64,000 nucleotides of DNA from a virus: positions 1 through 64,000 of IMG/VR virus record IMGVR_UViG_3300044641_004856; one strand, 5' to 3'. Both the position numbers and the translations under genes were made by a program. The notes under the pieces were generated by a model. That model saw only the letters and a program-made list of their open reading frames with translations. It did not search any database and had not been told where the DNA came from. The number at the start of each line of letters is the position of its first letter. Within the stretch, counting starts at the first letter, position 1. Positions 14,376-46,891 of the stretch are shown in pieces.

Positions 14376-15431
14376 GTGGCAACAGCGTCTAACTTAGCCG
14401 AAATGGTTAGGTCCGAAATAGGAGACTCCTCTAAGTCTTTTGTTATGCAGTTTATTGCAGATGGTACAACAAATAGATTTGGTCTTCACTACTCTCCAGT
14501 AGATGCAGCAAGCCTGTACGTAAGATTTGATGATTCCAATGTTTCCAACGATGTTTCCGTAGAGGAAGCAACAGGAGTTTTAGTAACAGATGTGATTCCA
14601 CCAGATGGCACTGAAATCACAGTTGCTGGTAATTACTTTAGATACTTTACACCAGCAGAAATTAATCGCTTTGTAGAAAACGCTGTATTGCAGCATTCAA
14701 ATAATAGAACAGACTCTTTAGGAAGAATTCAAACTCTTGAAAATCTTCCTCCAGTAGAGGTTTATCCAGTATCTCTTCTTGCAAGCACACTTGCTCTTTA
14801 CACTTTAGCAACTGATGCTTCATTCGACATTAACGTCTTTGCTCCAGACGGTGTGACAATTCCACGTTCTGAGCGTTACCGTCAATTAATGGATATGATT
14901 CAAGCACGCAAAGACCAATACCGCGAACTATGTGTTCTGCTTGGTATCGGTATGTATCGTATTGAGGTATTTACATTCCGCAGAATTTCTAAGACAACAA
15001 ATCACTACGTACCAGTTTATCGACCACAGGAGGTGGATGATTACTCTTACCCAGAAAGAATCGAACTTGCCCGACCTACCTATGGCGACCAGCCCTCAGA
15101 ACGACCTTATGACTCTGTGGACCTTACTGCCTATCAAGATGTGGCGTTTACGTACTCTATTCCGTTCGTCGGAAGCCTCGTCACACGAGGAGTAGTAGCA
15201 AATATTCGTTGGAAAGCAGGAGTTTTACAAAGTCACATGCCGTTTACTGTGACAGTTACTACCTCTCCAACCGATAATACAAGCCATACGATTACTTTAA
15301 GTTTGACCAAGGACCAGACCAAAAGACTTGCACAGCGTATGTACTGGGACATCGAGTTAGTTAGTGATAACGGAACTCGAGAAACATACAAGGCTGGCAA
15401 ACTATTTACAGTGCGTGAGGTGACAACGTAA
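14376..15431 (+). CDS. Head-tail adaptor/neck protein with extra domains
   Basis: [12 protein letters not shown]-terminus and [14 protein letters not shown]; C-terminal BppU-like [10 protein letters not shown]...YWDIEL...[10 protein letters not shown]. Confidence 0.6.
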
Positions 15432-17575
15432 TGCCTATTGACCCAAATAGCCCTCTCTATCCAGAGATTGACCCTGCACTTTTACCTGGAGTTCCTACAA
15501 CTCGAGGACCTCGTGGTTATCAAGGACCAACAGGACCAACAGGTCCACAAGGTCCTGCAGGTTCTGCTTCTGCAACTGGTGCAACTGGTGCAACAGGAGC
15601 AACTGGTGCGACAGGTGCAACAGGACCACAAGGTCCTACTGGTGCAGTTGGTCCACAAGGTTTAACTGGATTTACTGGTCCACAAGGTGCAACTGGTCCT
15701 ACTGGTGCTGACTCTCTTGTAACTGGTCCTACTGGTGCTGCAGGAGCAACAGGACCTACTGGTGCGATGGGTTCTACTGGTGCTACAGGTGCAATGGGTG
15801 CGACAGGACCAACAGGTCAACAAGGTATTCAAGGTCCACAAGGTATTCAAGGTGTAACTGGTCCGACTGGTGCATCTGGTGTTGCTGGTAATACAGGAGC
15901 AACTGGACCAACTGGTTCACAAGGTATTCAAGGACCAACAGGACCTACTGGTGCTACTGGTGCTGCTTCAACAGTAACTGGACCTACAGGTCCGACTGGT
16001 GCACAAGGTGCACTTGGTTTTACTGGACCTACAGGTTCTACTGGACCTACAGGACCAACAGGTGCTGCTTCAACAGTTACAGGACCTACAGGTAACACAG
16101 GACCTACAGGACCTACAGGACCTACTGGTGCACAAGGAACTGCTGTAACAATTAAGGGTGAGTATGCCGATGAAGCAACTTTACTTGCTGCTCGTCCTAC
16201 AGGAAATTTTGGCGATGCTTATTTAATCGCAAGTGGTGATTTGTATGTTTGGACTCCAAACTCAACTCCACCAAACTTTGGTACATGGAATAACGTTGGA
16301 AACATTCAAGGACCAACAGGACCTCGAGGTTTTACTGGACCAACTGGTGCTGAAGGTGCTGCTTCAACAGTAACTGGACCAACAGGTTCTACTGGTCCTA
16401 CAGGAGCCACTGGTGCTACTGGTGCTGCTTCAACCGTAACTGGTCCTACAGGTGCAACAGGTCCTACTGGTGCAACTGGTCCTACTGGTGCTACTGGTGC
16501 TGCTTCAACCGTAACTGGTCCTACAGGTTCTACTGGACCAACAGGAGCAACTGGTGCAGCCTCAACTGTTACTGGTCCAACAGGTGCTACTGGACCAACA
16601 GGTCCAACTGGAGCAACTGGTCAAGATGGTACATCTATTAACCTTAAGGGAACTGTTGCAGCAGTTGAGAATCTTCCTGCAACAGGAAATACAAATGGTG
16701 ATGCTTACCTTGTAACTGCAACAGGAAATATTTGGATTTGGTCAGGAAGTGCTTGGACAGATGGTGGACCATTCCGTGGTCCAACTGGTGCGACTGGACC
16801 TACTGGTCCAACTGGAGCCACTGGTGCTGCCTCTACTGTTACAGGACCGACTGGTGCTACAGGACCTACTGGTGCTACTGGACCAACAGGTGCACAAGGC
16901 CCAACAGGTGCACGTAACGGAACAACCTTTAAGATTACAAATAATGGTGCGGGAACACAATTTTTAGTTGAAGGTATTCCAGGAGACACACCAACACTTG
17001 ATGTTGTTCGTGGAGAAACTTACTACTTTGATTTAAGTGCTGTGCCTATTACAGACTCTTTCACAATTCGCTTTAACTTAACAGATACTGCAAACCCAAT
17101 TCCTGGAATGGTTGGAAACAACATTTCTACAGGAGCCTACGGTGGCAGTACTCCAAACATTATTACCTACACAGTTCCTCTTGATGCTCCAGCAAACTTA
17201 GTTTACCGAAGCGTTCAAGATGCAACTCAAGTTGGTGTCATTGCTATCTATGATAAGCGTGGTCCTACAGGACCTACTGGTCCACAGGGTGTAACTGGTC
17301 CTACGGGTGCAGCATCAACCGTTACGGGTCCTACGGGTCCTACAGGTCCTACTGGTCCTACTGGTCCTGTTGGTCAATTCACTGCCTCAGAAAGTGCTCC
17401 TACTGTTGAAAGTGCAGAAGCAGGTGATGCTTGGTTTAACACTCAAAATGCAAAAACTTACGTATTCTTTAATAATGCGTGGGTAGAGGTTGCTTCAGGA
17501 AACCTTGGTCCTACTGGTCCACAAGGACAGGCTGGTTCATTAGCACTATCTACAATGTGGTGGTTAGGAGCATGA
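15431..17575 (+). CDS. Collagen-like fibre protein (GPT/GAT repeats)
   Basis: Long Gly-X-Thr runs broken by two GDAYL..TG.L..W knobs and a cupredoxin-like domain; TAATG coupling to the adaptor gene. Confidence 0.85.
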
Positions 17576-20367: not shown

Positions 20368-23300
20368 ATGCCAATTAATATTACCGCAGCAGGTTTAACA
20401 GGAACTCATACCTTTACACCTACAAACATCAACACTGCTGACTACTACCTTTACTACCCAACCAATACGCTTGGTCAACCAACTATTCCTGAAGCACTTA
20501 GAGATGGTTCTGCCTTTATTTACAATACTGGTCTAGGAACAATTAATGGGCTTAGTGATAGCAGTTTGTATTACATCAAGCGTGTTGGAACTGCTCAAGT
20601 ATTTTTTAGCACAACTGCAGGTGGTTCTGATGTAGCACTAACAACTCCTACTGCAGGAACTGCGTTTTTTAATGCTCCTTATGTATACCAAAATAAACTT
20701 TCTATTGAGGCAACTCTTTCAGATAACCAAGCGGTTCGTTATGTAACAGATGGAACAGCAATTGGTGGGCTTACAAAAAACAACGTTTACTTTATTAAGA
20801 CCTCAAACACAGGTTTTGGTACAGCAAATGCTCTCTACACATTCTCCTCATTTATCTTTACAACTGCTGGAACTACTGGAAACGTAGGACCATCAATTTC
20901 AACTATTAAAGCGCACTCTAGTTATAGTGCTGCTTCTTGGAAGACAGACTACCTACAAGCAGGTAACTTCCAAGGTTATCAAGACTGGACAGTTCCAACC
21001 TCTGGTACCTACACATTTAACGTTCGTGGTGCTGCAGGTCTTAATGGTTCTGGTTCTGGTGCTGCAGGTCGTGGTGCGATTGTTCAAGGAAGAGTCTTCC
21101 TGCAAAAGGGAGAAGTCATTACTATTGTAGTTGGACAACGCGGAACTGCTGCTCGTTCTGGTTCAACTTACGGTGGTTCAGGTGGTGGTTCTTGGGTTGT
21201 TCGTAAATCAGGAAACGTCCCTCTTTTTGTGGCGGGTGGAGGTTCTGCAGATGCAGATACTACTAACGGTCGAGATGGTGCTCTTACAACTGCTGGTGGT
21301 CAATCTTCTGCTAGTGCTGATGGTGGCTCAAATGGTAATGGTTCAGTTGCAACTGGAGGTAACTCTGGTGGTGGCGGTGGTTTTTCTACCGATGGTTCTA
21401 ACGCAACTAACGGTGTTAAGGGCGGTGGCTCTTTTGCTACAGGTTTAACAACAACTGGTGGAGGAACTGTTGGTGGATTTGGTGGATTTGGTGGCGGTGC
21501 ATCTGCTGACGGAGACACAACTGGTCAATCTGGTGGTGGCGGTGGCTACTCTGGTGGTGCTGGTGCTCGCTCTAATGCTGCACGTGTTGCAGGCGGTGGC
21601 GGTGGTTCATTCATCGTAACTTCAGCAACAAACGTTGCAACCTCAACTGGTTCTTTCAACGGCTCAACATCTTGGGGAACAGAAACAATTACAAACCTCA
21701 ACTCTTGGAATGCTGATGCTGATGGTCAAGTAACAGTAACTTTAGTTGCTGCTGCTGCTGCAACAGTTACTTTGCACCCAACTGCAGTTGATGCAAATGA
21801 CGGAACAAACGGAATTACTTTAACTGCTGGGGGAAGCAAGTATCACGCTTTAGTTCCTCTACAGGTAGACTTAGTAAGTAATACTTTTTACTCACCATCT
21901 TTGCATGGTTTGAGTAACGGTGAAGCAGTTAAGTTTGTTACCAATGGAACTACTCCTGGTGGCATCACTGCAAACACAGCGACTTACTACGTCAATAAAG
22001 TTGACAATTATTCTTATAAATTAAGTACAACTCCGTCTCCATCATTTACTGATGTTGATGTGACAAGCCCTGGTGCTGCAAGTATTGAGCGTTTTGACAA
22101 AATTATTGTTAATACTGCAACCAATACGATTACTATTAACAACCACGGTTTCTTGGCTAATCAGCCTGTTAAGTATGCAGTCAATGGTGGAACTGTTATT
22201 TCTCCACTTGTTGATGGTGCTACTTACTACGTAAAGACAGTAGTAGATGCAAACCGCATTATCCTAAGCCAATCTTTGAATGGCCCAGATTTAGATTTAA
22301 CATCTGCAGGAACTGGAACTGGACACTCCTTTATCTTCGTTACAGTTAACGTTGAAGAAGACAGCCTTTACATTCCACAGCACGACCTATCAACTGGTCA
22401 AAGAGTTGTTTACTCAAGTGGTGCTGGAACAGTAATTGGCGGGCTTACAAACGGTGCTGCTTACTTCGTATTTAGAGTAGATGCCAACATTATCAAGTTG
22501 TCTACTGTTAAAACAGGAGCAGCGATTGTTAACCTAACAGGTCTAGGTACAGGAACTCACACTCTGACTGTTAACTCAGTTGATTTGACTACTGAAACAA
22601 TCACAATTCCAAACCACGGATTTACTACAGGTGAACTTGTATCTTACGATACAGCAGGACAAACACCACTAACAGGACTTGTTTCTGGTTCTCCTTACTA
22701 TGTAATTGCACCAAATGGTGATGAAATTAAGTTGGCAACAACTTATGACAACGCTATTAATGGAACAGCGATTAACTTAACAGGTGTTGGAGTTGGAAAG
22801 CACAGACTTTACTCACTCATCCGTACACCAGATGGTATCTACACAGTAGATGCAATTCCATCTACAACAACCTTTAATGTTAAAGCAAATGGTCTTGTAC
22901 CACTTATTATTAAAGAGTTTGTTCCTCGTTCTACTGTAGATACACAACAGAACGTATTTAAGATTCTAGGTCACGGTTTTATTACTGGAACCAAGGTTGC
23001 CTATAATTCAGGTGGAGGTTCATCAATTGGTGGACTTACTTCAGGAACTGACTACTATGTAATTAACGTAAATAAGGATTACATTAAACTGGCTTCTTCT
23101 GCAGATAATGCAATTTCTGGTACCCCTATTACTATCTCTGACTTTGGTTCTGGAAACAGCCACCACTTTACATCTGCCCAGATTAACGGACAGATTGTTG
23201 GTGCAGGTACAGTTTCTACTGAATCAGGCTCCGTATTGGTAGCAGGTTCTGGAACAGCCTTTGCTAAGATTCTAAAGGTGGGAGACAAGTTCCGCGTATT

Positions 23301-25962
23301 CCCATCCAATACAAACAAGTCCAACACCTTTGCAAGTGCTGCCTTTAATGCATCAACTAACGTTATTACAATCACTAGCCATGGATATTTAACTGGTGAC
23401 GTTGTTACTTACACAGCAGGAGCAGGTGGTGTTGCACCAACTGGTCTTGTTACAACATATAACTACTATGTTCGTCGTATTGATGCATCAAGCATTACCC
23501 TTCACAACACTTTAACTGATGCAACAAACAATACAAACCAGGTTGACTTTACAAACCAAGGAACTGGTTCTGCCCACAACCTAATTAACGTAGTTCCAAG
23601 AACTCCGATTATTAGAACAATTACTGCTATTGGTTCTGACACTCAGATTACAATTGACAGACCTTATAGCGAGGCTTACACAGGAGTTTCATACTCTTAC
23701 CCAACATTTATCTATGTTCGTCCTGAAGGATACTCTCTACACAGACCATTTGATGGTGGTGTGGAAATGTCCACAGGTGTAGGAACATCCTTCTCTCAGA
23801 TTGTTCGTCAGACTCGTAAGTACTTCCGTTACCAGTCAGGTAAAGGTATTCAGGTATCGTTTGCTATTAACTTTAAACCATCAATTGACCTTGAAACACT
23901 AACTAAGATTAGTGCGACAACTATTCAAGGTAAGACTCGTCGTCCACACGGCTTGTTAAATGGTCTTACAGTTGCAATTAAGGATGCTCTAAAGCCAGAC
24001 GGCACGATGAGCACTGTCTACAACGGTCTGTTCCAAATCTCCGTATTAGACCCTTACACCTTTACCTACATCTCTCCTGCAGCAATTCCTGCGGGTCAAG
24101 AAAAGTCTTATGGCTTTGCACACCTCTATGTAAACGCATGGCAAAATGGTGCTGTTCGTTCAGGTATGTTTGACTTCCAGAACGGTATGTACTTTGAGTT
24201 TGATGGACAGAAGATTTATGCAGTGCGTCGTTCTTCTACCCAACAGATTGCTGGAGTTGCTGCAGCACAACAAGGTTCTGAACTAGTATTTGGAACTGGA
24301 ACAGCATTTACCTCTCAACTAGCAGCAGGTGACATGATTGTTATGCGTGGTCAGTCTTACAAGGTTGCTAATGTTACAAGTGACACTCAAATTACTATTA
24401 AGCCTGAGTACAAAGGTGCATCAGGACCTATAAAAGAGTTTAATCCGCAAACAGTTGTTAATGCTACTGCTGACACCTTCACTATCTTAGGTCACGGTTT
24501 TGTTGAAAACCTTGCTGTTACCTACGACTCAATTGACGGCGTTCCAGTCGGAGGTCTTATCAACGGACGTACTTACTACATTAAAGTTATAGACAATAAT
24601 ACCTTTAAGTTAATGGGTACACCAAACTCTGTTTCAACGGTAGCACTTGCTGATACAGGTTCAGGAACTCTGCACTCATTCCAGCCTTCAAAGGCAGGTA
24701 TTATTATTACTAAGACTATCGATACAAGAGTTCCACAAGAGTCTTGGAATATCGATGTCTGCGATGGAACTGGCCCAACAGGTTATGTTCTTGACCTAGC
24801 AAAGATTCAAATGGCTTACATTGATTACTCTTGGTACGGTGCAGGAAAGATTCGTTTTGGATTTAAAGATGCAACAGGAACAGTCAAGTATGTTCACGAA
24901 TTTAAGCACAACAACGTGTTGTATGAGTCATACCTACGTTCAGGTAACTTGCCTGCACGTTATGAAGTAACCACTCTTTCTAACCCAACATACATCCCTT
25001 ACCTATTCCACTGGGGTACTTCGGTTATCATGGATGGTCGCTTTGATGATGACAAGGCATACCTCTTTACAGGAACTAGCCAGACGCTACAGATTCTTGG
25101 TACTACAGCCAAGTCATTTGGTTCAAGGGCTATTAACGTTTCAACTAACCGCGTTAACATCCCAACACACGGTTTCTCTAGCGGAGATGCTGTGACATTC
25201 CAGGGCTTTACCTCAGCAGGTATTGCTGGTGTAGTAAGTCAGAACCCAGGAACTGTAAACAACGTAGGCCATCCGTTCTCTCAAATGCAGAATCAACGGA
25301 CCTACTATGTTTGCCGTCAAGATGCTGACAACATTACCTTCCACAATACTCAAGCAGATGCTATTGCAACGTCTGGTACTTCACCAAACATTGTTCTTGG
25401 CACAAATCCTATTGATATTACTACTACAGGTAACACTCAGTACACCTTCTTTATCTACCCACTAGGTGCTGCAAATAACACCTCTGGTATTAACTACCAG
25501 CCACTTCTATCAATTCGCCTCTCTCCTTCAGTATCTGAAGGTTTGACAGGTAAGTTGGGTGACCGTGACGTTATTAACCGCATGCAGTTGACTATGAGTG
25601 AAATTGGTATCCAAACAACTCAGTTGGTGGATGTTAAGTTACTTCTCAACGGACGTTTGAACAACTTGAACTTCCAAGGAGTGCCACAGCCTTCTCTAAC
25701 TCAGACAATTCAACACACATCAAATGACACTATCTCTGGTGGTGTTCAGGTTTACAACTTCCGTGCATCAGGTGGTGCTTCAGGTAGTGAGAACTCAACT
25801 ACAGTTGATATTAGTGAGTTGTTCGAACTTTCAAACTCTATTCTAGGAGGAGACTCCGTGTACCCAGATGGTCCAGACATTCTAACGATTGCTGTGGCTC
25901 GTCTAACAGGTAACACCACTCTAACTTCTGCTAAATTATCATGGCGAGAAGCACAAGCCTAA
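20368..25962 (+). CDS. Giant modular virion fibre protein, part 2 (1864 aa)
   Basis: About 10 HGF.TG..V.Y...GGL..G..YYV modules; Gly-rich domain; RQTRKYFRYQSGKG / IDYSWYGAG / GNLPARYEV core. Confidence 0.8.
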   Translation: MPINITAAGLTGTHTFTPTNINTADYYLYYPTNTLGQPTIPEALRDGSAFIYNTGLGTINGLSDSSLYYIKRVGTAQVFFSTTAGGSDVALTTPTAGTAFFNAPYVYQNKLSIEATLSDNQAVRYVTDGTAIGGLTKNNVYFIKTSNTGFGTANALYTFSSFIFTTAGTTGNVGPSISTIKAHSSYSAASWKTDYLQAGNFQGYQDWTVPTSGTYTFNVRGAAGLNGSGSGAAGRGAIVQGRVFLQKGEVITIVVGQRGTAARSGSTYGGSGGGSWVVRKSGNVPLFVAGGGSADADTTNGRDGALTTAGGQSSASADGGSNGNGSVATGGNSGGGGGFSTDGSNATNGVKGGGSFATGLTTTGGGTVGGFGGFGGGASADGDTTGQSGGGGGYSGGAGARSNAARVAGGGGGSFIVTSATNVATSTGSFNGSTSWGTETITNLNSWNADADGQVTVTLVAAAAATVTLHPTAVDANDGTNGITLTAGGSKYHALVPLQVDLVSNTFYSPSLHGLSNGEAVKFVTNGTTPGGITANTATYYVNKVDNYSYKLSTTPSPSFTDVDVTSPGAASIERFDKIIVNTATNTITINNHGFLANQPVKYAVNGGTVISPLVDGATYYVKTVVDANRIILSQSLNGPDLDLTSAGTGTGHSFIFVTVNVEEDSLYIPQHDLSTGQRVVYSSGAGTVIGGLTNGAAYFVFRVDANIIKLSTVKTGAAIVNLTGLGTGTHTLTVNSVDLTTETITIPNHGFTTGELVSYDTAGQTPLTGLVSGSPYYVIAPNGDEIKLATTYDNAINGTAINLTGVGVGKHRLYSLIRTPDGIYTVDAIPSTTTFNVKANGLVPLIIKEFVPRSTVDTQQNVFKILGHGFITGTKVAYNSGGGSSIGGLTSGTDYYVINVNKDYIKLASSADNAISGTPITISDFGSGNSHHFTSAQINGQIVGAGTVSTESGSVLVAGSGTAFAKILKVGDKFRVFPSNTNKSNTFASAAFNASTNVITITSHGYLTGDVVTYTAGAGGVAPTGLVTTYNYYVRRIDASSITLHNTLTDATNNTNQVDFTNQGTGSAHNLINVVPRTPIIRTITAIGSDTQITIDRPYSEAYTGVSYSYPTFIYVRPEGYSLHRPFDGGVEMSTGVGTSFSQIVRQTRKYFRYQSGKGIQVSFAINFKPSIDLETLTKISATTIQGKTRRPHGLLNGLTVAIKDALKPDGTMSTVYNGLFQISVLDPYTFTYISPAAIPAGQEKSYGFAHLYVNAWQNGAVRSGMFDFQNGMYFEFDGQKIYAVRRSSTQQIAGVAAAQQGSELVFGTGTAFTSQLAAGDMIVMRGQSYKVANVTSDTQITIKPEYKGASGPIKEFNPQTVVNATADTFTILGHGFVENLAVTYDSIDGVPVGGLINGRTYYIKVIDNNTFKLMGTPNSVSTVALADTGSGTLHSFQPSKAGIIITKTIDTRVPQESWNIDVCDGTGPTGYVLDLAKIQMAYIDYSWYGAGKIRFGFKDATGTVKYVHEFKHNNVLYESYLRSGNLPARYEVTTLSNPTYIPYLFHWGTSVIMDGRFDDDKAYLFTGTSQTLQILGTTAKSFGSRAINVSTNRVNIPTHGFSSGDAVTFQGFTSAGIAGVVSQNPGTVNNVGHPFSQMQNQRTYYVCRQDADNITFHNTQADAIATSGTSPNIVLGTNPIDITTTGNTQYTFFIYPLGAANNTSGINYQPLLSIRLSPSVSEGLTGKLGDRDVINRMQLTMSEIGIQTTQLVDVKLLLNGRLNNLNFQGVPQPSLTQTIQHTSNDTISGGVQVYNFRASGGASGSENSTTVDISELFELSNSILGGDSVYPDGPDILTIAVARLTGNTTLTSAKLSWREAQA

Positions 25963-26511: not shown

Positions 26512-27990
<1,479 letters not shown>

Positions 27991-36354: not shown

Positions 36355-39069
36355 ATGGCAGAATTAAACGATTCGTTAAAACAAACCGACGAATTGTTAT
36401 CCAGCATTGTCAAAAGTCTGACCTCTGCTGAGCAAATAACTAAACGCCTTGAAGGTTCTATGGGTGGAGTTGCTGGAAAAGCAAAGTCTGCTAAGGGTGG
36501 TGGTGACCGACATATCGGTACGGGTCAACATAGCCAAATGCCACACATGGACAAAGTAACTTTTAGTGGACAAGAAAAAGTTGATAGCACTGCAGAAATT
36601 GCTATGCGAGAGGGTATGGAGGCCACTAGATATGGCTTAACCCCTACTCGTGGTCAAAAATTATTGGGAGTTGGTCAAGGACTTGCACAAGCAACCTTTG
36701 GTATTGCTGCTGGAGCAATGGCTGCAATGCCAGGAGTTGCCGAAGTTGGTGCAAGTGCTGGTAACTATTACGGAGCATCTATTCGTTCTAATATGAGCCG
36801 TACTTCAATAATGAATGCCACTTTTGGTGGTTTAGCAGGTGGAGTTACGAGCACTCTTTCTTCTTCAAATATTGCAAGTATTGCTGCAGCAAGAGGCATT
36901 ATGCCAGGAAGTGCTCAATACAATGCTTTAGTTGCAGATGTTGGTGGTGCTGCACGGTATATGAACATGGCAAATGAAAACGCTATGGTTGCCATGTCTG
37001 GTTTTACTCAAGGAGACTTTTCCTCTCGTTTATACAACATTGGTGTTAGCACTTACGATTCAAAAACTGGTAAGGCTCGAGGCCAAGATGAAATTTTTGG
37101 TCAACTCTACGGTCGTCTCACTCAAGGTCAAGGAAAAATGAGTGTAGAAGAGACTATGAATAGTTTTCAAGCAGGTGGTTTTAACAAAGCAGTTACTGAT
37201 TTAGGAATGACAGAAGACCAAAGACAACTTTTTATGCAATATTCTGTTGATAGAGCAGCAGGAAAACCAACTGATTTATCTAAACTAGGGTACGGACAAA
37301 ATCCTCTAGCGGATAAAATGCGTATTACCGCATCTGATACATCGGTTTTAAATACGTACACCGAACCCGTATTAAAAGGACTTAAAGCAGCAGCCGATTT
37401 AATTGAGACCACAGTTAATCCTGCATTAGAAAAATTGGCTGGTACTGCAGGAGTGGCATCAGGATTTTTAGGTGGTATGGGTGAATCACGTGCAGGAATG
37501 GGCATGGGTATCGCTGGTGGTGGAATTGTTCAAGGATTGATGACTGCTGGTGGTGCTTTCTTAGGTGCTAAAGGTGCTCAAGGTCTTTTAGGCAAAGGCG
37601 GTTCTAGTGGGGTTAAAGCAGGAGGTTTTAAAGGTCTTTTAGGAAAAGCAGGACTTGCTGGATTAACCTACATGGGATTAGAGCAAGTACAAAAGTTTTT
37701 TAACAAAGCAGATGTTCCAGATGAAATGCGTTATATCGCAAACCTTTTATTTGACGCAGGTCAAGGTGGGTTGACTGGATTAGCAACAGGAAACCCTTAT
37801 GCAGCCCTTGCTGGTACAGTCGCAGGCACTGCTGGTGGTGTTGCAAACCCTTACGGTGGTAAAGGCGGTGGTACTCCAGGATTTGGTGCTGCTTTTGGTT
37901 CTAGTGGCGTAAATAGTGCAAACCCCTCTTCACCAATTACTAATGGTGGTGTAGGAACACCTTACGGTGCTACGGGAAGTTTATGGTCTGGGGGAAGTCA
38001 CACAGGTCAAGATTACCCATGTGCTGTTGGAACTCCTGTTCACGCATCATTAGGTGGAATGGTTATTAATACAAACCCTGGTTCAGATTACGGTAAAACT
38101 GTAGAAATTGACCACGGAAACGGTTATCAAACTTTGTACGGACATTTATCGGAAGTACTGGTCAAAGTTGGAGACACTGTTACGCAAGGACAGTTAATTG
38201 CAAAAAGTGGTGACACTGGAAAAGTTACAGGTCCTCACTTGCACTATGAAGTACGTAAAGGAAAAAATAACCCAGTAAATCCTGATGAATTAAGCAAAGC
38301 AGGAGGTTCTGGTTTAGCAGGAGTTCTGGGTGCAAGTGGCAATAATGGAACATCTACTAACGGGCAACAGTTATCGGCTATGGTTGGTTCTAAATCTTTA
38401 CAAGAATTACTAAGTGGGGGTATAGGAAATCTTCCTGCTGAACTTTTGGGTAGTGCTAGTAGTAGTAGTGCTACAAGTGGTGGAGCAAAGGTAATCCTTG
38501 GAACTGGTAGTGAAAAAGAATGGGCTACTGGTCTTCTTCAAAAAATGGGTGCTCCAGTCAGTGATGCTTCTATAAATGCTCTTACTACATGGATGCGTCA
38601 TGAAGGTGGACACTGGAAAAACTCTGCTCACTACAATCCTTTAAATACCACATTAGACATGAGTAACAATGAGTCTATGAATAGTGTGGGAGTAAAACGC
38701 TACAAATCTTGGGAAGAAGGATACGCAGCAACTATAGGAACGTTGACAGGAAAAAATGCTGGGGACCGTGGGTATACAGCAATTGTAGATGCTTTAAAGT
38801 CAGGTGCTTCGACAGATGCTATTTTAGCAGCAGTAAATAACTCAGCATGGATGACTGGTAAAACGGGAAAAAACCCTTATAAGTTCCAAGGTGGAGGCTC
38901 ACCTTCAGTTGCAACACTTAACTCTTCAGCAGGACTAAATATATCTCCGTCTATCACAATTAATGTAAGCGTTCAACAAGCATCTTACGCTGAGGCTATG
39001 AGTCTTGTTGAAATTGTTAAAACTCAACTTGAAAAAGAAAATTTACTTAGAATAGTAGGTGGGAAATAA
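36355..39069 (+). CDS. Tape measure protein with M23 peptidase and C-terminal lysozyme-like domain
   Basis: Gly/Ala helical body; HTGQD, YGHLS, GPHLHYEV; WMRHEGG...YNPLNTT...GVKRYKSWEEG. Confidence 0.88.
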   Translation: MAELNDSLKQTDELLSSIVKSLTSAEQITKRLEGSMGGVAGKAKSAKGGGDRHIGTGQHSQMPHMDKVTFSGQEKVDSTAEIAMREGMEATRYGLTPTRGQKLLGVGQGLAQATFGIAAGAMAAMPGVAEVGASAGNYYGASIRSNMSRTSIMNATFGGLAGGVTSTLSSSNIASIAAARGIMPGSAQYNALVADVGGAARYMNMANENAMVAMSGFTQGDFSSRLYNIGVSTYDSKTGKARGQDEIFGQLYGRLTQGQGKMSVEETMNSFQAGGFNKAVTDLGMTEDQRQLFMQYSVDRAAGKPTDLSKLGYGQNPLADKMRITASDTSVLNTYTEPVLKGLKAAADLIETTVNPALEKLAGTAGVASGFLGGMGESRAGMGMGIAGGGIVQGLMTAGGAFLGAKGAQGLLGKGGSSGVKAGGFKGLLGKAGLAGLTYMGLEQVQKFFNKADVPDEMRYIANLLFDAGQGGLTGLATGNPYAALAGTVAGTAGGVANPYGGKGGGTPGFGAAFGSSGVNSANPSSPITNGGVGTPYGATGSLWSGGSHTGQDYPCAVGTPVHASLGGMVINTNPGSDYGKTVEIDHGNGYQTLYGHLSEVLVKVGDTVTQGQLIAKSGDTGKVTGPHLHYEVRKGKNNPVNPDELSKAGGSGLAGVLGASGNNGTSTNGQQLSAMVGSKSLQELLSGGIGNLPAELLGSASSSSATSGGAKVILGTGSEKEWATGLLQKMGAPVSDASINALTTWMRHEGGHWKNSAHYNPLNTTLDMSNNESMNSVGVKRYKSWEEGYAATIGTLTGKNAGDRGYTAIVDALKSGASTDAILAAVNNSAWMTGKTGKNPYKFQGGGSPSVATLNSSAGLNISPSITINVSVQQASYAEAMSLVEIVKTQLEKENLLRIVGGK

Positions 39070-44424: not shown

Positions 44425-45093
44425 ATGCCCGCTTCGTATCCCGCAGGTGTCAAAGGTTTTACTACCAAGGTTGACTTTACCGACCTCGTATTAGCCGACC
44501 ACGTTAATGCTCTACAAGATGAAGTTCGTGCTCTACAAGCAACTATTGGCACAGACCCACAAGTAAGTAGTGGTTGGGTTGGAACTCTCGATAAAACAAC
44601 CCAAACTTGGGCAACGTTAAAAGCACGTATTGCAAATCTTGAGTACGGAGTAGTTAACGACTCACACACCCAGTACACACATAACACTGGTGGAGATACT
44701 ATTCAGGCTAATGGTGCAACCATTATTCCTCTTAAACTAAAAGGTTTTACTAGCCAAACAGCAGACTTACTAAGATTTGAAAACTCAGCAGGAACAACCT
44801 TAACTAAAGTTGATAAAGACGGAAAACTTTTCATTAACAATCAAGAAATCAAACCTGTTCTTCATCAACAGGCTCAACCAGATGGTGTGGCATTAGGATT
44901 ACCTCAAGGAACTCTTTGGGTAGATTCTGATTCAAACCCTGCAGTTTTATCTGTGGACACAACTATTCAAATTACTGGTGGAACCCTAACTGGTGACCAA
45001 GCATTGACTTCCCGCCTTCGTAATATCACCGTGTCTACTTCTGACCCAACTGGCGGAAATAACGGAGATATTTGGCTTAAGTACACTGTGTAG
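44425..45093 (+). CDS. Short tail fibre/stem protein
   Basis: ADHVNALQDEV N-terminus; ends RNITVSTSDPTGGNNGDIWLKY, a common fibre-tip motif. Confidence 0.65.
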   Translation: MPASYPAGVKGFTTKVDFTDLVLADHVNALQDEVRALQATIGTDPQVSSGWVGTLDKTTQTWATLKARIANLEYGVVNDSHTQYTHNTGGDTIQANGATIIPLKLKGFTSQTADLLRFENSAGTTLTKVDKDGKLFINNQEIKPVLHQQAQPDGVALGLPQGTLWVDSDSNPAVLSVDTTIQITGGTLTGDQALTSRLRNITVSTSDPTGGNNGDIWLKYTV

Positions 45094-45104
45094 GTCTAGG
45101 TACT

Positions 45105-46421
45105 ATGCCTATTCAGATTAAAGTCGCCAACAATTACGTTTCTTCAGGCTCTGCGTTTTTTAAAAGCGGTGGTGCTTGGATAAAGGCTAAAGAAGGTTAC
45201 GTAAAAGTTGAAGGCACTTGGCGTAAGTTTTTTGTGTCGGAGTTTAAAGACTTCTTTGAAAGAGCAAACGCTTCAACATTAGGCACTTCTCCTACTGGAC
45301 AAGCCTGGACAGTTGGTAGAGGCACTTGGAACATACTTGATGGTAAAGCACAAATTGCTACAGCAAAGTCAACATACCCAATTGCTTTAGTTGATGTTGG
45401 ACTAACAGATTTTGAACTACAGGCAAATGACATGGTTCCAGGAGTTGGCGTAATAATTAGGGCAGAGTCTTCTACTACTTGGTGGGGCTTAGTTGGTTGG
45501 AATAACCAAGTTGCTTACACATATTCTTTTTGCCCACAAGCACTCGTTAATCAAGGCTACTGCATTGTAGATAATATTTGCCAGCAAACAATTTGTCCTG
45601 GTGGGTATCAAACAGGGCAAAATTGTTCCCAAGGTCCTTGTTTAGTGCGTGAGCCAGACCAATTAGTTGGTATTGATTGTACGTATGCTTACTATCCAGG
45701 AACAACAACCTGTACTCCCGTCTCTACGCCACAAACAACTTGCCAAAACGTATGCATTAAAAACTGTACTAAAACAACTTGTACACCAGGAAAAACAACC
45801 TGTACCAACTACCCTAAATGGGGAAGACAGTGTTACACCAGTGAACCAACCTGTACCTCTTCCTCTTTCTGTTGTGATAGAGATACGGTATGCAGTACAA
45901 CAATTGTTATAACGCAATCTTGCACAACATCAGCAGGTAGTTATCGAGAAACGTGTGCTGGGTACTCTAGTCAGCAAGGAGCGTGTACCTCCTATGGTGC
46001 AGACGTTTGTACATCTTTTTCAACTTGTCCTGGTGGAACTACAACTCAAAACGTTGTCTGCGGTTACCCAGACTGTGCACAACTAGGTTCACGTCAAGTA
46101 TGCCCAGTTGCAGAACAAACGGCGACTGGATACAATTACTTCTATAAACTTTACCTAATTAAGTCTGTAAATGGCGTTATAACCGTAGAACAACAATTTG
46201 ATATTGGGGAAAACTTCAAGGCTCTTGGTGTGCTTGGAGTCGGTCCTAACTTAGCAGTAAACGTGTATAGAGATAACGCCTATAACGACCAGATTAAGGT
46301 GTTGAGTTACTCGTCGTTTACCTCCCCAGCAGGAAGTAACTTCGGTATATTTGGCTATCCTTCAAATTACCAAGAAGGTAATACAATTGGTTCAATACAA
46401 GTAAAGCAACCAGGAGCATAA
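45105..46421 (+). CDS. Putative fibre-tip adhesin with a 26-Cys insert in a beta-sandwich domain
   Basis: N-terminal KSGGAW..AKEGYVKVEGTW motif; all 26 Cys lie in 45531-46103. Confidence 0.65.
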   Translation: MPIQIKVANNYVSSGSAFFKSGGAWIKAKEGYVKVEGTWRKFFVSEFKDFFERANASTLGTSPTGQAWTVGRGTWNILDGKAQIATAKSTYPIALVDVGLTDFELQANDMVPGVGVIIRAESSTTWWGLVGWNNQVAYTYSFCPQALVNQGYCIVDNICQQTICPGGYQTGQNCSQGPCLVREPDQLVGIDCTYAYYPGTTTCTPVSTPQTTCQNVCIKNCTKTTCTPGKTTCTNYPKWGRQCYTSEPTCTSSSFCCDRDTVCSTTIVITQSCTTSAGSYRETCAGYSSQQGACTSYGADVCTSFSTCPGGTTTQNVVCGYPDCAQLGSRQVCPVAEQTATGYNYFYKLYLIKSVNGVITVEQQFDIGENFKALGVLGVGPNLAVNVYRDNAYNDQIKVLSYSSFTSPAGSNFGIFGYPSNYQEGNTIGSIQVKQPGA

Positions 46422-46422
46422 T

Positions 46423-46704
46423 ATGAGTGAAAAAAGTCCGTGGCAGTTATGGAAAGAAAAAAACCCAGGTGATGCTGTTCGTCCATGGGATTTACTAAAT
46501 CCTAATGTAAAGCGAGTCGACGATGAAACTCGGGATTACCGACTTAACCATTGTCTAGGATGCAAACATTTAATTAAAGCCACTAAAACATGTACTAAAT
46601 GTGGCTGTTTTATGACAGAAAAAACTAAATTAGCCCATGCTTCATGCCCCATTGGACTATGGGGTGCTGTTACTATAGAACCTACAAACACAGAAGGAGA
46701 ATAA
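46423..46704 (+). CDS. Small Cys-cluster protein (DUF6171-like)
   Basis: R...CLGC...CTKCGCFM..K......CPIGLW. Confidence 0.7.
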   Translation: MSEKSPWQLWKEKNPGDAVRPWDLLNPNVKRVDDETRDYRLNHCLGCKHLIKATKTCTKCGCFMTEKTKLAHASCPIGLWGAVTIEPTNTEGE

Positions 46705-46705
46705 A

Positions 46706-46891
46706 ATGGCGGAGAACCAAAGATTTTTAGCGTTTGTCCTTGATGGAGAAGTAGCAGAAATACTTCAGACCGATGACAAACTTGCTGCTATTTTTCTAAG
46801 TCAACCAAAAGTAGTTGAATTTGATAGAGAAAAAGACGGTGTTGTTGCTGGTATGAAGTACGACGGCACGAAGTTTAGTAACCCTGAGTAA
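46706..46891 (+). CDS. Small tail-associated protein
   Basis: AFVLDGEV...GMKYDGTKF pattern; AAGGAG RBS. Confidence 0.65.
   Translation: MAENQRFLAFVLDGEVAEILQTDDKLAAIFLSQPKVVEFDREKDGVVAGMKYDGTKFSNPE

Follow-up and report, generated by a model that had tools for sequence, protein, structure and literature searches.

The DNA analyzed here, a window of 64,000 nucleotides, belongs to a 92,874-bp IMG/VR virus record (IMGVR_UViG_3300044641_004856) that is estimated to be 96% complete. The early genes encode, in order, a terminase, portal, capsid, collagen-like fibres, sheath and a tape measure with a peptidase domain. These are followed by genes for a gp25-like protein, a baseplate J-like protein, a gpV/gp5 OB-fold spike, a 222-aa fibre-like protein (44,425–45,093, plus strand) and the 438-aa protein described here (45,105–46,421, plus strand), a lectin-like tail protein whose hairpin insert bears a ladder of Cys. 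We call it the Cys protein and found 40 full-length homologues. Located 3′ of this gene are a 93-aa protein with the motif CxxC...CxxCxC...CP and a 61-aa ORF (together 46,423–46,891, plus strand), a 145-aa ORF and a 730-aa fibre with a CBM_4_9 domain. Major capsid proteins of the Streptomyces myophages BRock and LuckySocke are 59–61% identical to that of this phage, and in LuckySocke the genes after baseplate J encode minor tail proteins. From the capsid kinship and the 37–47% G+C of the window, the host is probably an actinobacterium of low G+C. A scan of genomes for prophage copies returned partial matches to the first half of the core only, in Acidimicrobiia/Iamiaceae MAGs and two Bacillales genomes; as these matches are too weak, we do not name a host from them.

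The order of this module is conserved in 24 related viral loci. In these loci, the 222-aa fibre-like protein is always upstream of long forms of the Cys protein. Its last 25 amino acids match a tail-fibre PHROG and its C-terminal residues 155–220 are nearly invariant, while the rest diverges to about 70% between phages. The 93-aa and 61-aa pair is always syntenic, lying directly downstream in 23 of the 24 loci, with the other (L023) ending within the Cys gene; a relative with a short insert (L024) also has the pair downstream. The 93-aa protein matches Pfam DUF6171 weakly, at 23.1 bits, which is under the cut-off.

The Cys protein can be divided into four parts, all encoded on the plus strand. 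Residues 1–45 (45,105–45,239) form an N-terminal module, a β-hairpin with G-x-W-x-K motifs that is probably an attachment module. It is the best-conserved part of the protein (dN 0.05, entropy 0.25 bits), matches the N termini of phrog_25859 and phrog_36019 and is missing from three short relatives (P0041–43) and from many family members; comparison with the downstream 145-aa ORF revealed no similarity. Residues 46–142 (45,240–45,530) and 334–438 (46,104–46,418) are, from AF2 strands and VIA-align comparisons, the two halves of a ConA-like β-sandwich. Between them lies an insert of 191 residues (143–333; 45,531–46,103) that, on the evidence of symmetry, paired Cys changes, coevolution and AF2, is a two-armed β-ribbon with 26 Cys in up to 13 nested pairs. 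The last strand of the first half contains AYTYSF and the first strand of the second half GYNYFY; in the AF2 model both are sandwich strands flanking the insert, as an earlier note on this DNA, made from the letters alone, had proposed.

All 26 Cys fall within residues 143–333 and none outside, a span that also contains 33 Thr. Cysteine makes up 13.6% of the insert and 0.43% of the other ORFs of the 64-kb window. The outgoing arm has Cys at residues 143, 153, 159, 164, 174, 179, 192, 203, 213, 217, 221, 226 and 233, and the returning arm at 243, 250, 256, 257, 263, 273, 284, 294, 302, 308, 319, 324 and 333. The arrangement of 13 + 13 Cys around the tip C233-TNYPKWGRQ-C243 (45,801–45,833), which the earlier note had described, is thus correct as counted. 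Spacers before the center are 9, 5, 4, 9, 4, 12, 10, 9, 3, 3, 4 and 6, the central loop is 9, and those after it are 6, 5, 0, 5, 9, 10, 9, 7, 5, 10, 4 and 8. From these measured spacers we reproduced the matches 9/8, 5/4, 10/10, 9/9, 4/5 and 6/6 on which that note had drawn, and nested pairing places CPQ opposite CPV and CPGG opposite CPGG, as it claimed. When the Cys are paired from the outside in, the sums of the two positions are 476, 477, 478, 472, 476, 473, 476, 476, 476, 474, 477, 476 and 476. Seven of the 13 sums equal 476 and the mean deviation is 1.0 residue; the other six pairs sit 1–4 residues off register. Mirror symmetry this good arises in only 0.019% of shuffles of the spacers and in 0.0025% of sets placed at random, so chance does not explain the mirror spacing (P about 1e-4 to 1e-5). 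We ruled out a DNA-repeat artefact as its source: repeats in the DNA are only 14–20 nt long, and the symmetry is therefore a feature of the protein.

Homologues allow the nested order to be examined independently of the spacing. A search of 5.8 billion proteins identified 40 full-length relatives (95–33% identity) and three short ones. Cys counts in the 40 range from 20 to 34 and are odd in one only. Five predicted pairs (3-24, 5-22, 9-18, 12-15 and 13-14, numbering the Cys from the N terminus) vary jointly, in keeping with the expectation that Cys would be gained and lost in symmetric pairs. Specifically, C174 and C302 are both present in 21 sequences, both absent from 19 and single in 1; C226 and C250 are both present in 22, both absent from 18 and single in 1; C159 and C319 are both present in 37 and both absent from 4; and C233 and C243 are both present in 38 and both absent from 3, these three homologues having longer loops. 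The fifth pair, C213/C263, is lost jointly in one homologue (P0014). Where 226/250 are absent, Cys are usually present at 224 and 252 instead (both in 11 sequences), and this shift of −2/+2 is what adjacent positions on the same face of an antiparallel ribbon would give. A/Y, E/T or T/Q take the place of lost pairs, and extra Cys are added as one per arm. Seven pairs lack covariation support because they are invariant in the well-aligned homologues. On a tree made solely from the non-insert (core) columns, C174 has 11 changes and C302 has 10. The two never move in opposite directions, and they agree in direction in about 3.9 of 4 independent contrasts on supported branches. Control Cys that are not predicted partners are uncorrelated on this tree.

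Changes in insert length follow the same rule. An insert longer by 9 residues (P0032) and inserts shorter by 3 (P0012/13) retain the sum pattern because both arms changed together; indels that broke the symmetry had been named as a possible refutation, and those we found preserve it. Residues other than Cys also coevolve across the arms. Using MI with APC correction for long-range pairs among 156 variable insert columns in 41 sequences, we found that 9 of the top 10, 17 of the top 20, 24 of the top 40 and 38 of the top 80 pairs lie within ±2 of i + j = 476, where 0.3, 0.6, 1.1 and 2.2 would be expected by chance. With Cys columns removed, the counts are 9/10, 13/20, 21/40 and 30/80. The antidiagonal contacts span outgoing-arm residues 157 to 233, and the arms are therefore in register along the whole insert, a conclusion independent of any structure predictor. 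The pair distribution has a single peak, with no second diagonal seen, a weak test with 41 sequences.

The AF2 models are in agreement, although they are not fully independent of the MI analysis because both draw on the same alignment signal. For the full protein, modeled from the 41-sequence alignment, the mean pLDDT is 78.7, with most of the insert at 73–81 and both of its ends near 60; for the insert alone (16 sequences) it is 85.0, and all five models score 81–85. The long hairpin expected of such a model is what AF2 predicts for the insert alone, at pLDDT 85. Both models contain eight mirror strand pairs in the same register, with matching three-residue breaks between pairs, and P237-K238-W239 forms the turn. 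Strands take up 138 of the 191 residues when the insert is modeled alone, and the two faces of the ribbon are alike rich in Thr, Ser and Gln. Taken with the paired Cys changes and coevolution, this makes nesting of the Cys partners across the two arms well supported. The stricter claim, that every Cys i pairs with Cys 27 − i, holds in part: six pairs are off register, and C217, C221, C256 and C257 cannot be assigned partners.

These four Cys deserve separate mention. C217-IKN-C221 (45,753–45,767, plus strand), a 'knuckle' in the outgoing arm, is invariant in 41 of 41 sequences, and its two Cys are off register with their nested partners (sums 474 and 477). In the returning arm, C256-C257-D-R-D (45,870–45,884, plus strand) has invariant C256, C257, D258 and D260, and a dN of 0.14 versus 0.6–0.7 in its flanks. 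The four Cys cannot form regular cross-strand rungs without a bulge.

The body that carries the ribbon has the fold of a ConA-like lectin/CBM β-sandwich. VIA-align matched the scaffold to the CBM66 structure 4b1m (Z 16.0), the C-terminal receptor-binding domain of TM4 gp23 (9n6a, Z 14.8), residues 109–311 of the Douge baseplate chain 8zdo_a (Z 14.3) and CBM2 of the phage J-1 Dit (Z 12.9), with rmsd of 2.5–3.7 over 148–176 residues for the first three. The matched region of 8zdo_a is probably the BppU CBM, which the Douge paper places at 116–311 (PMC13033339). In BFVD, six uncharacterised proteins of uncultured Caudovirales have the nearest models, and minor tail proteins of actinophages come next. 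A Gly-rich-motif sandwich of the gp38 type (T2/S16) was rejected, as the fold is that of a ConA-like CBM and no gp38-like family matched. For the insert, neither Foldseek nor VIA-align with the insert-only model returned a significant solved analogue. The best Foldseek matches are the pore stems of aerolysin and lysenin (E about 9e-3, TM ≤ 0.16) and the best VIA-align match is the phi29 knob hairpin, at Z 3.0, where models without a clear match typically reach 7–8. At the sequence level, the Cys protein has no match by tblastn in 50,697 GenBank phage records or in Pfam and NCBIfam, and the family profile has no hit among PDB sequences at E ≤ 0.1.

The Cys protein is the most divergent gene product of the module at every distance across the 24 loci. 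In near phages it is 69–80% identical and its neighbors 77–99%, with the J-like, fibre-like, 93-aa, 145-aa and 730-aa proteins at 86–99% and the 61-aa ORF the lowest neighbor; in far phages it is 33–38% identical and the neighbors 37–76%. That the ribbon is the fast-evolving part of the protein is well supported. dN is 0.05–0.08 in the N-terminal module and core, 0.14–0.18 at the hairpin base and 0.60–0.72 in the distal arms and tip, and dN/dS climbs from 0.10–0.17 to 0.4–0.7 in the insert. As dN/dS is below 1 and insert dS is saturated, the insert may be under relaxed constraint. Variation had been predicted for the tip, and tip alleles are indeed discrete (NYPKWGR-type, TREDRITR-type and several others, with the TREDRITR tip also present in homologues of 33–37% identity); column entropy, however, follows the same profile along both arms, such that the distal three quarters of both vary too.

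How might such a protein function? We favor, at a probability of about 0.6 for the explanation as a whole, a host-recognition protein of a myophage that combines a lectin-like body with a long, Cys-laddered antiparallel ribbon. The gene product would be a baseplate- or fibre-attached protein of an uncultured myophage related to the BRock group of Streptomyces phages. This role is suggested by its position after the gp25-like, J-like, gpV-like and fibre-like genes, by the match of its core to phage receptor-binding CBMs and by its having the greatest divergence in the module. The N-terminal ~45 residues would anchor the protein to the tail, possibly by docking to the nearly invariant C terminus of the upstream 222-aa protein, which is a candidate partner. 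The idea in the earlier note of a single adhesin capping a trimeric fibre would involve these two ends, and their high conservation is circumstantial evidence for it. The ConA-like sandwich forms the body and, by analogy with the Douge BppU CBM and TM4 gp23, may bind sugar. From between adjacent sandwich strands, 191 residues would exit and re-enter as one two-stranded ribbon of ~95 residues per arm, which could be on the order of 20–30 nm long if extended. A lectin-like head with a single long ribbon is well supported; the ribbon probably contacts the host.

In this mechanism, each residue of one arm would face its counterpart in the other (i + j = 476), and up to 13 nested cross-strand Cys pairs would hold the arms together. 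The pairs are most likely disulfides, which may form once the virion meets oxidising water. The rungs would stabilise the ribbon without a hydrophobic core, leaving the residues between them and the 8–9-residue tip loop free to change, so that the distal three quarters of the ribbon could serve as the hypervariable, host-facing part and both rungs and arm length could be gained or lost as matched pairs.

Several other readings can be envisioned. If the Cys instead bound metal, as Zn or Fe-S clusters, or made local knots, the four invariant Cys that are off the ladder register (C-x3-C and CC, with adjacent invariant Asp) would be a candidate site, and a Zn-ribbon-like protein is encoded next door. 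Doubt about disulfides also arises because virions assemble in the reducing cytoplasm and no thiol-redox gene is recognisable; we found no Erv1/ALR, thioredoxin, glutaredoxin or DsbA-like gene in the 92.9-kb genome. Nevertheless, we regard this reading as highly improbable, the least likely of those considered. Nearby Cys changing in groups of three or four would be expected of zinc fingers or Fe-S sites, but the changes are in distant pairs, the 217/221/256/257 site being a candidate exception. Cys change in twos rather than fours, partners covary in nested order up to 160 residues apart, non-Cys columns give the same antidiagonal, and the residues that replace lost pairs are not metal ligands. 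Among 143 of the best family profile matches of 240–700 aa, 131 (91%) have an even number of Cys, 66 of them 2 mod 4 and 65 of them 0 mod 4. We favor disulfides over metal sites because of these even counts with no preference for multiples of four, the non-ligand replacements and the Cys-poor proteome; pairwise changes and the precedent of disulfide-bonded virions point the same way. The separation of up to 160 residues between covarying partners also rules out a Tenebrio-type Thr/Cys β-helix with local disulfides.

The readings that accept the ladder differ in what the ribbon does. The more serious, which we nonetheless consider unlikely, assigns receptor binding to the lectin-like core and makes the ribbon a passive stalk, strut or spacer, its variability reflecting weak constraint outside the Cys framework and arm length. 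Consistent with this reading, dN/dS in the arms does not exceed 1, variation is not concentrated at the tip but extends over the entire distal ribbon and both of its faces, the TREDRITR tip is kept between proteins of only 33–37% identity and the core alone resembles glycan-binding CBMs. However, the insert also has elevated dS, and closely related phages carry discrete tip and arm cassettes in new combinations, a pattern typical of genes that determine host range. Moreover, a side projection from a lectin domain that ends in a free loop has nothing to space, and insert length runs from about 40 to about 400 residues across the family. Alternatively, the hairpins of several subunits could pack into a β-barrel or sheet, forming a tube or needle at the baseplate like aerolysin stems or podophage knobs. 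A free two-stranded ribbon of ~95 residues per arm is without precedent, and the only, weak look-alikes (aerolysin and lysenin stems at E about 1e-2, the phi29 knob at Z 3.0) are oligomeric hairpins. Yet both faces of the modeled ribbon are polar, lacking the amphipathic alternation of aerolysin-type stems, and the single coevolution antidiagonal gives no hint of a second strand register, albeit as a weak test with 41 sequences. Since a barrel would be disturbed by the frequent paired indels and rung changes seen among close relatives, and a myophage already possesses a tube and spike, we view packing of this kind as very unlikely.

Elements of the proposed host-recognition protein are familiar from other systems. 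In θ-defensins, protegrins and tachyplesins, two antiparallel strands are joined by nested, parallel cross-strand disulfides. The term 'cystine ladder' is in use for such an arrangement (PMC13408038). The Cys protein shares with these peptides the antiparallel hairpin and the nested cross-strand Cys pairs, as judged from covariation and AF2, with the disulfides themselves presumed. The peptides are free or cyclic antimicrobials with 2–3 rungs in 16–18 residues, whereas the Cys protein would have up to 13 rungs in a 191-aa insert of a 438-aa virion protein, with bulges between rungs. Very long hairpins also occur in the stems of aerolysin and lysenin and in the phi29 gp9 knob, to which the insert model has no significant match; shorter and without Cys, the hairpins of these proteins are found only in oligomeric barrels.

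Bovine ultralong CDR-H3 loops likewise extend a long β-ribbon from a β-sandwich, are hypervariable and differ in Cys number among alleles; their disulfides belong to a folded knob and are absent from the stalk. The resemblance to the Cys protein lies in the ribbon on a β-sandwich scaffold, the hypervariable sequence and the variable number of Cys. As the Cys protein has a non-Ig scaffold, Cys along both arms of its stalk and a plain tip loop of 8–9 residues, the comparison made in the earlier note with the bovine stalk and knob is a loose one: there is no knob, and the disulfides would be in the stalk.

Among phages, the Cys protein resembles the ConA-like receptor-binding domains of the actinophage proteins TM4 gp23 and Douge BppU in its superposable sandwich, in the location of its gene within the baseplate/fibre module and in the actinophage-like lineage of its phage, as seen in the major capsid protein; for Douge, the BppU CBM is reported to bind glycans of the mycobacterial cell wall (PMC13033339). 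Neither these domains nor CBM66 has been described with a long Cys-rich hairpin insert, and none has detectable sequence similarity to the Cys protein (PDB profile search at E ≤ 0.1; Pfam). Disulfide-bonded virions are known for cyanophage Pam3 (PMC9942802), Agrobacterium phage Milano (PMC10811340) and the M. abscessus phage Jabs (PMC13419713), and Pam3 fibres come off on treatment with DTT (PMC9942802). Assembly in the cytoplasm thus does not prevent tail and adhesion proteins from acquiring disulfides in the virion; in these phages, in contrast to the ladder proposed here along a single hairpin, the disulfides join subunits or staple ordinary domains.

The family to which the Cys protein belongs is large. 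A profile search of 1.84 billion representatives returned 1,643 proteins at E ≤ 1e-3 and 415 at E ≤ 1e-10. Cys counts in the 143 members analyzed range from 4 to 46, and other family members have none. In the same 143, length minus Cys span is 229 ± 31 aa and length correlates with span (r = 0.92). The short relatives, of 267–272 aa, retain the sandwich but not the N-terminal module, and their insert of ~60 aa contains 6 Cys. Simple mirror spacing is significant in roughly a fifth of the sampled members. Because many members lack it, the single-hairpin reading is secured for this clade and not for the whole family. It is an attractive but tentative idea, to which we give slightly less than even odds, that the design is a general display scaffold of (probably) freshwater actinobacterial phages, one that lacks a solved analogue. 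In it, a free two-stranded ribbon on a lectin domain would draw nearly all of its stability from a ladder of cross-strand disulfides (0 to 23 pairs across the family), would be tuned in length by the gain or loss of matched rungs and could diversify almost every residue other than Cys for host recognition, much as an antibody does with its loops.

No phage protein of such a design was described in the literature reached by our full-text searches, and the structure searches found none either. Should the ladder prove real, this β-hairpin would be the longest one known to be stapled by disulfides, and it raises the question of how 13 ordered disulfides are reached in a protein made in a reducing cytoplasm. 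It could also interest binder engineers, as a natural scaffold almost freely variable in length and surface. For the phages themselves, the ribbon would represent a new viral route to a thin, stable and hypervariable probe that needs no hydrophobic core, and it would point to what probably determines host range in a large group of uncultured phages, whose family of at least 1,600 clusters at 50% identity is currently without Pfam or NCBIfam annotation.

The 222-aa fibre-like protein encoded upstream of the Cys protein (window positions 44425-45093) is almost invariant over its C-terminal residues 155-220 (...TTIQITGGTL.GDQALTSRLRNIT.ST..PTGGNNGDIW.KY), whereas identity in the remainder of the protein falls to ~70%. 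As judged from sequence conservation, this pattern is the opposite of that of a receptor-binding tip and suggests instead that the C-terminal stretch is a docking surface.

Directly downstream of the Cys protein, positions 46423-46891 hold the gene for a 93-aa protein, which carries the motif CxxC-x9-CxxCxC-x12-CP, and a 61-aa ORF. This gene order is kept in every related viral locus that reaches beyond the end of the Cys gene (L001-L022 and L024), including L024, which belongs to a different phage and encodes a short relative of the Cys protein (266 aa, 6 Cys). Among near phages, the 93-aa protein is 91-99% conserved, far above the Cys protein. It matches DUF6171 weakly and also phrog_13558, and no relative was found among solved structures. 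One possible role for the 93-aa protein is to assist maturation or assembly.

Elsewhere in the window, two collagen-like tail-fibre proteins (15431-17575 and 26512-27990), each with a strong match to collagen-like minor tail PHROGs, are encoded on either side of a 1,864-aa ORF (20368-25962). The 904-aa protein in the tape-measure position (36355-39069) contains an M23-type metallo-endopeptidase domain at residues ~530-650. Across the phage proteome (window 1-64000), Cys content is strikingly low at 0.43%, and many structural proteins, among them the products of the 812-, 714-, 442- and 222-aa ORFs, contain no Cys.

The family of the Cys protein, as collected by profile search, also includes giant relatives of 1,200-2,500 aa (P0070, P0075, P0087, P0131, P0148, P0153 and P0154), in each of which the first half of the sandwich (profile positions ~47-130) is matched 5-8 times. 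In other members, such as P0107, P0116, P0088 and P0175, the insert is 300-400 aa long and contains 32-46 Cys that show no simple mirror spacing; inserts of this type may be branched or consist of several hairpins.
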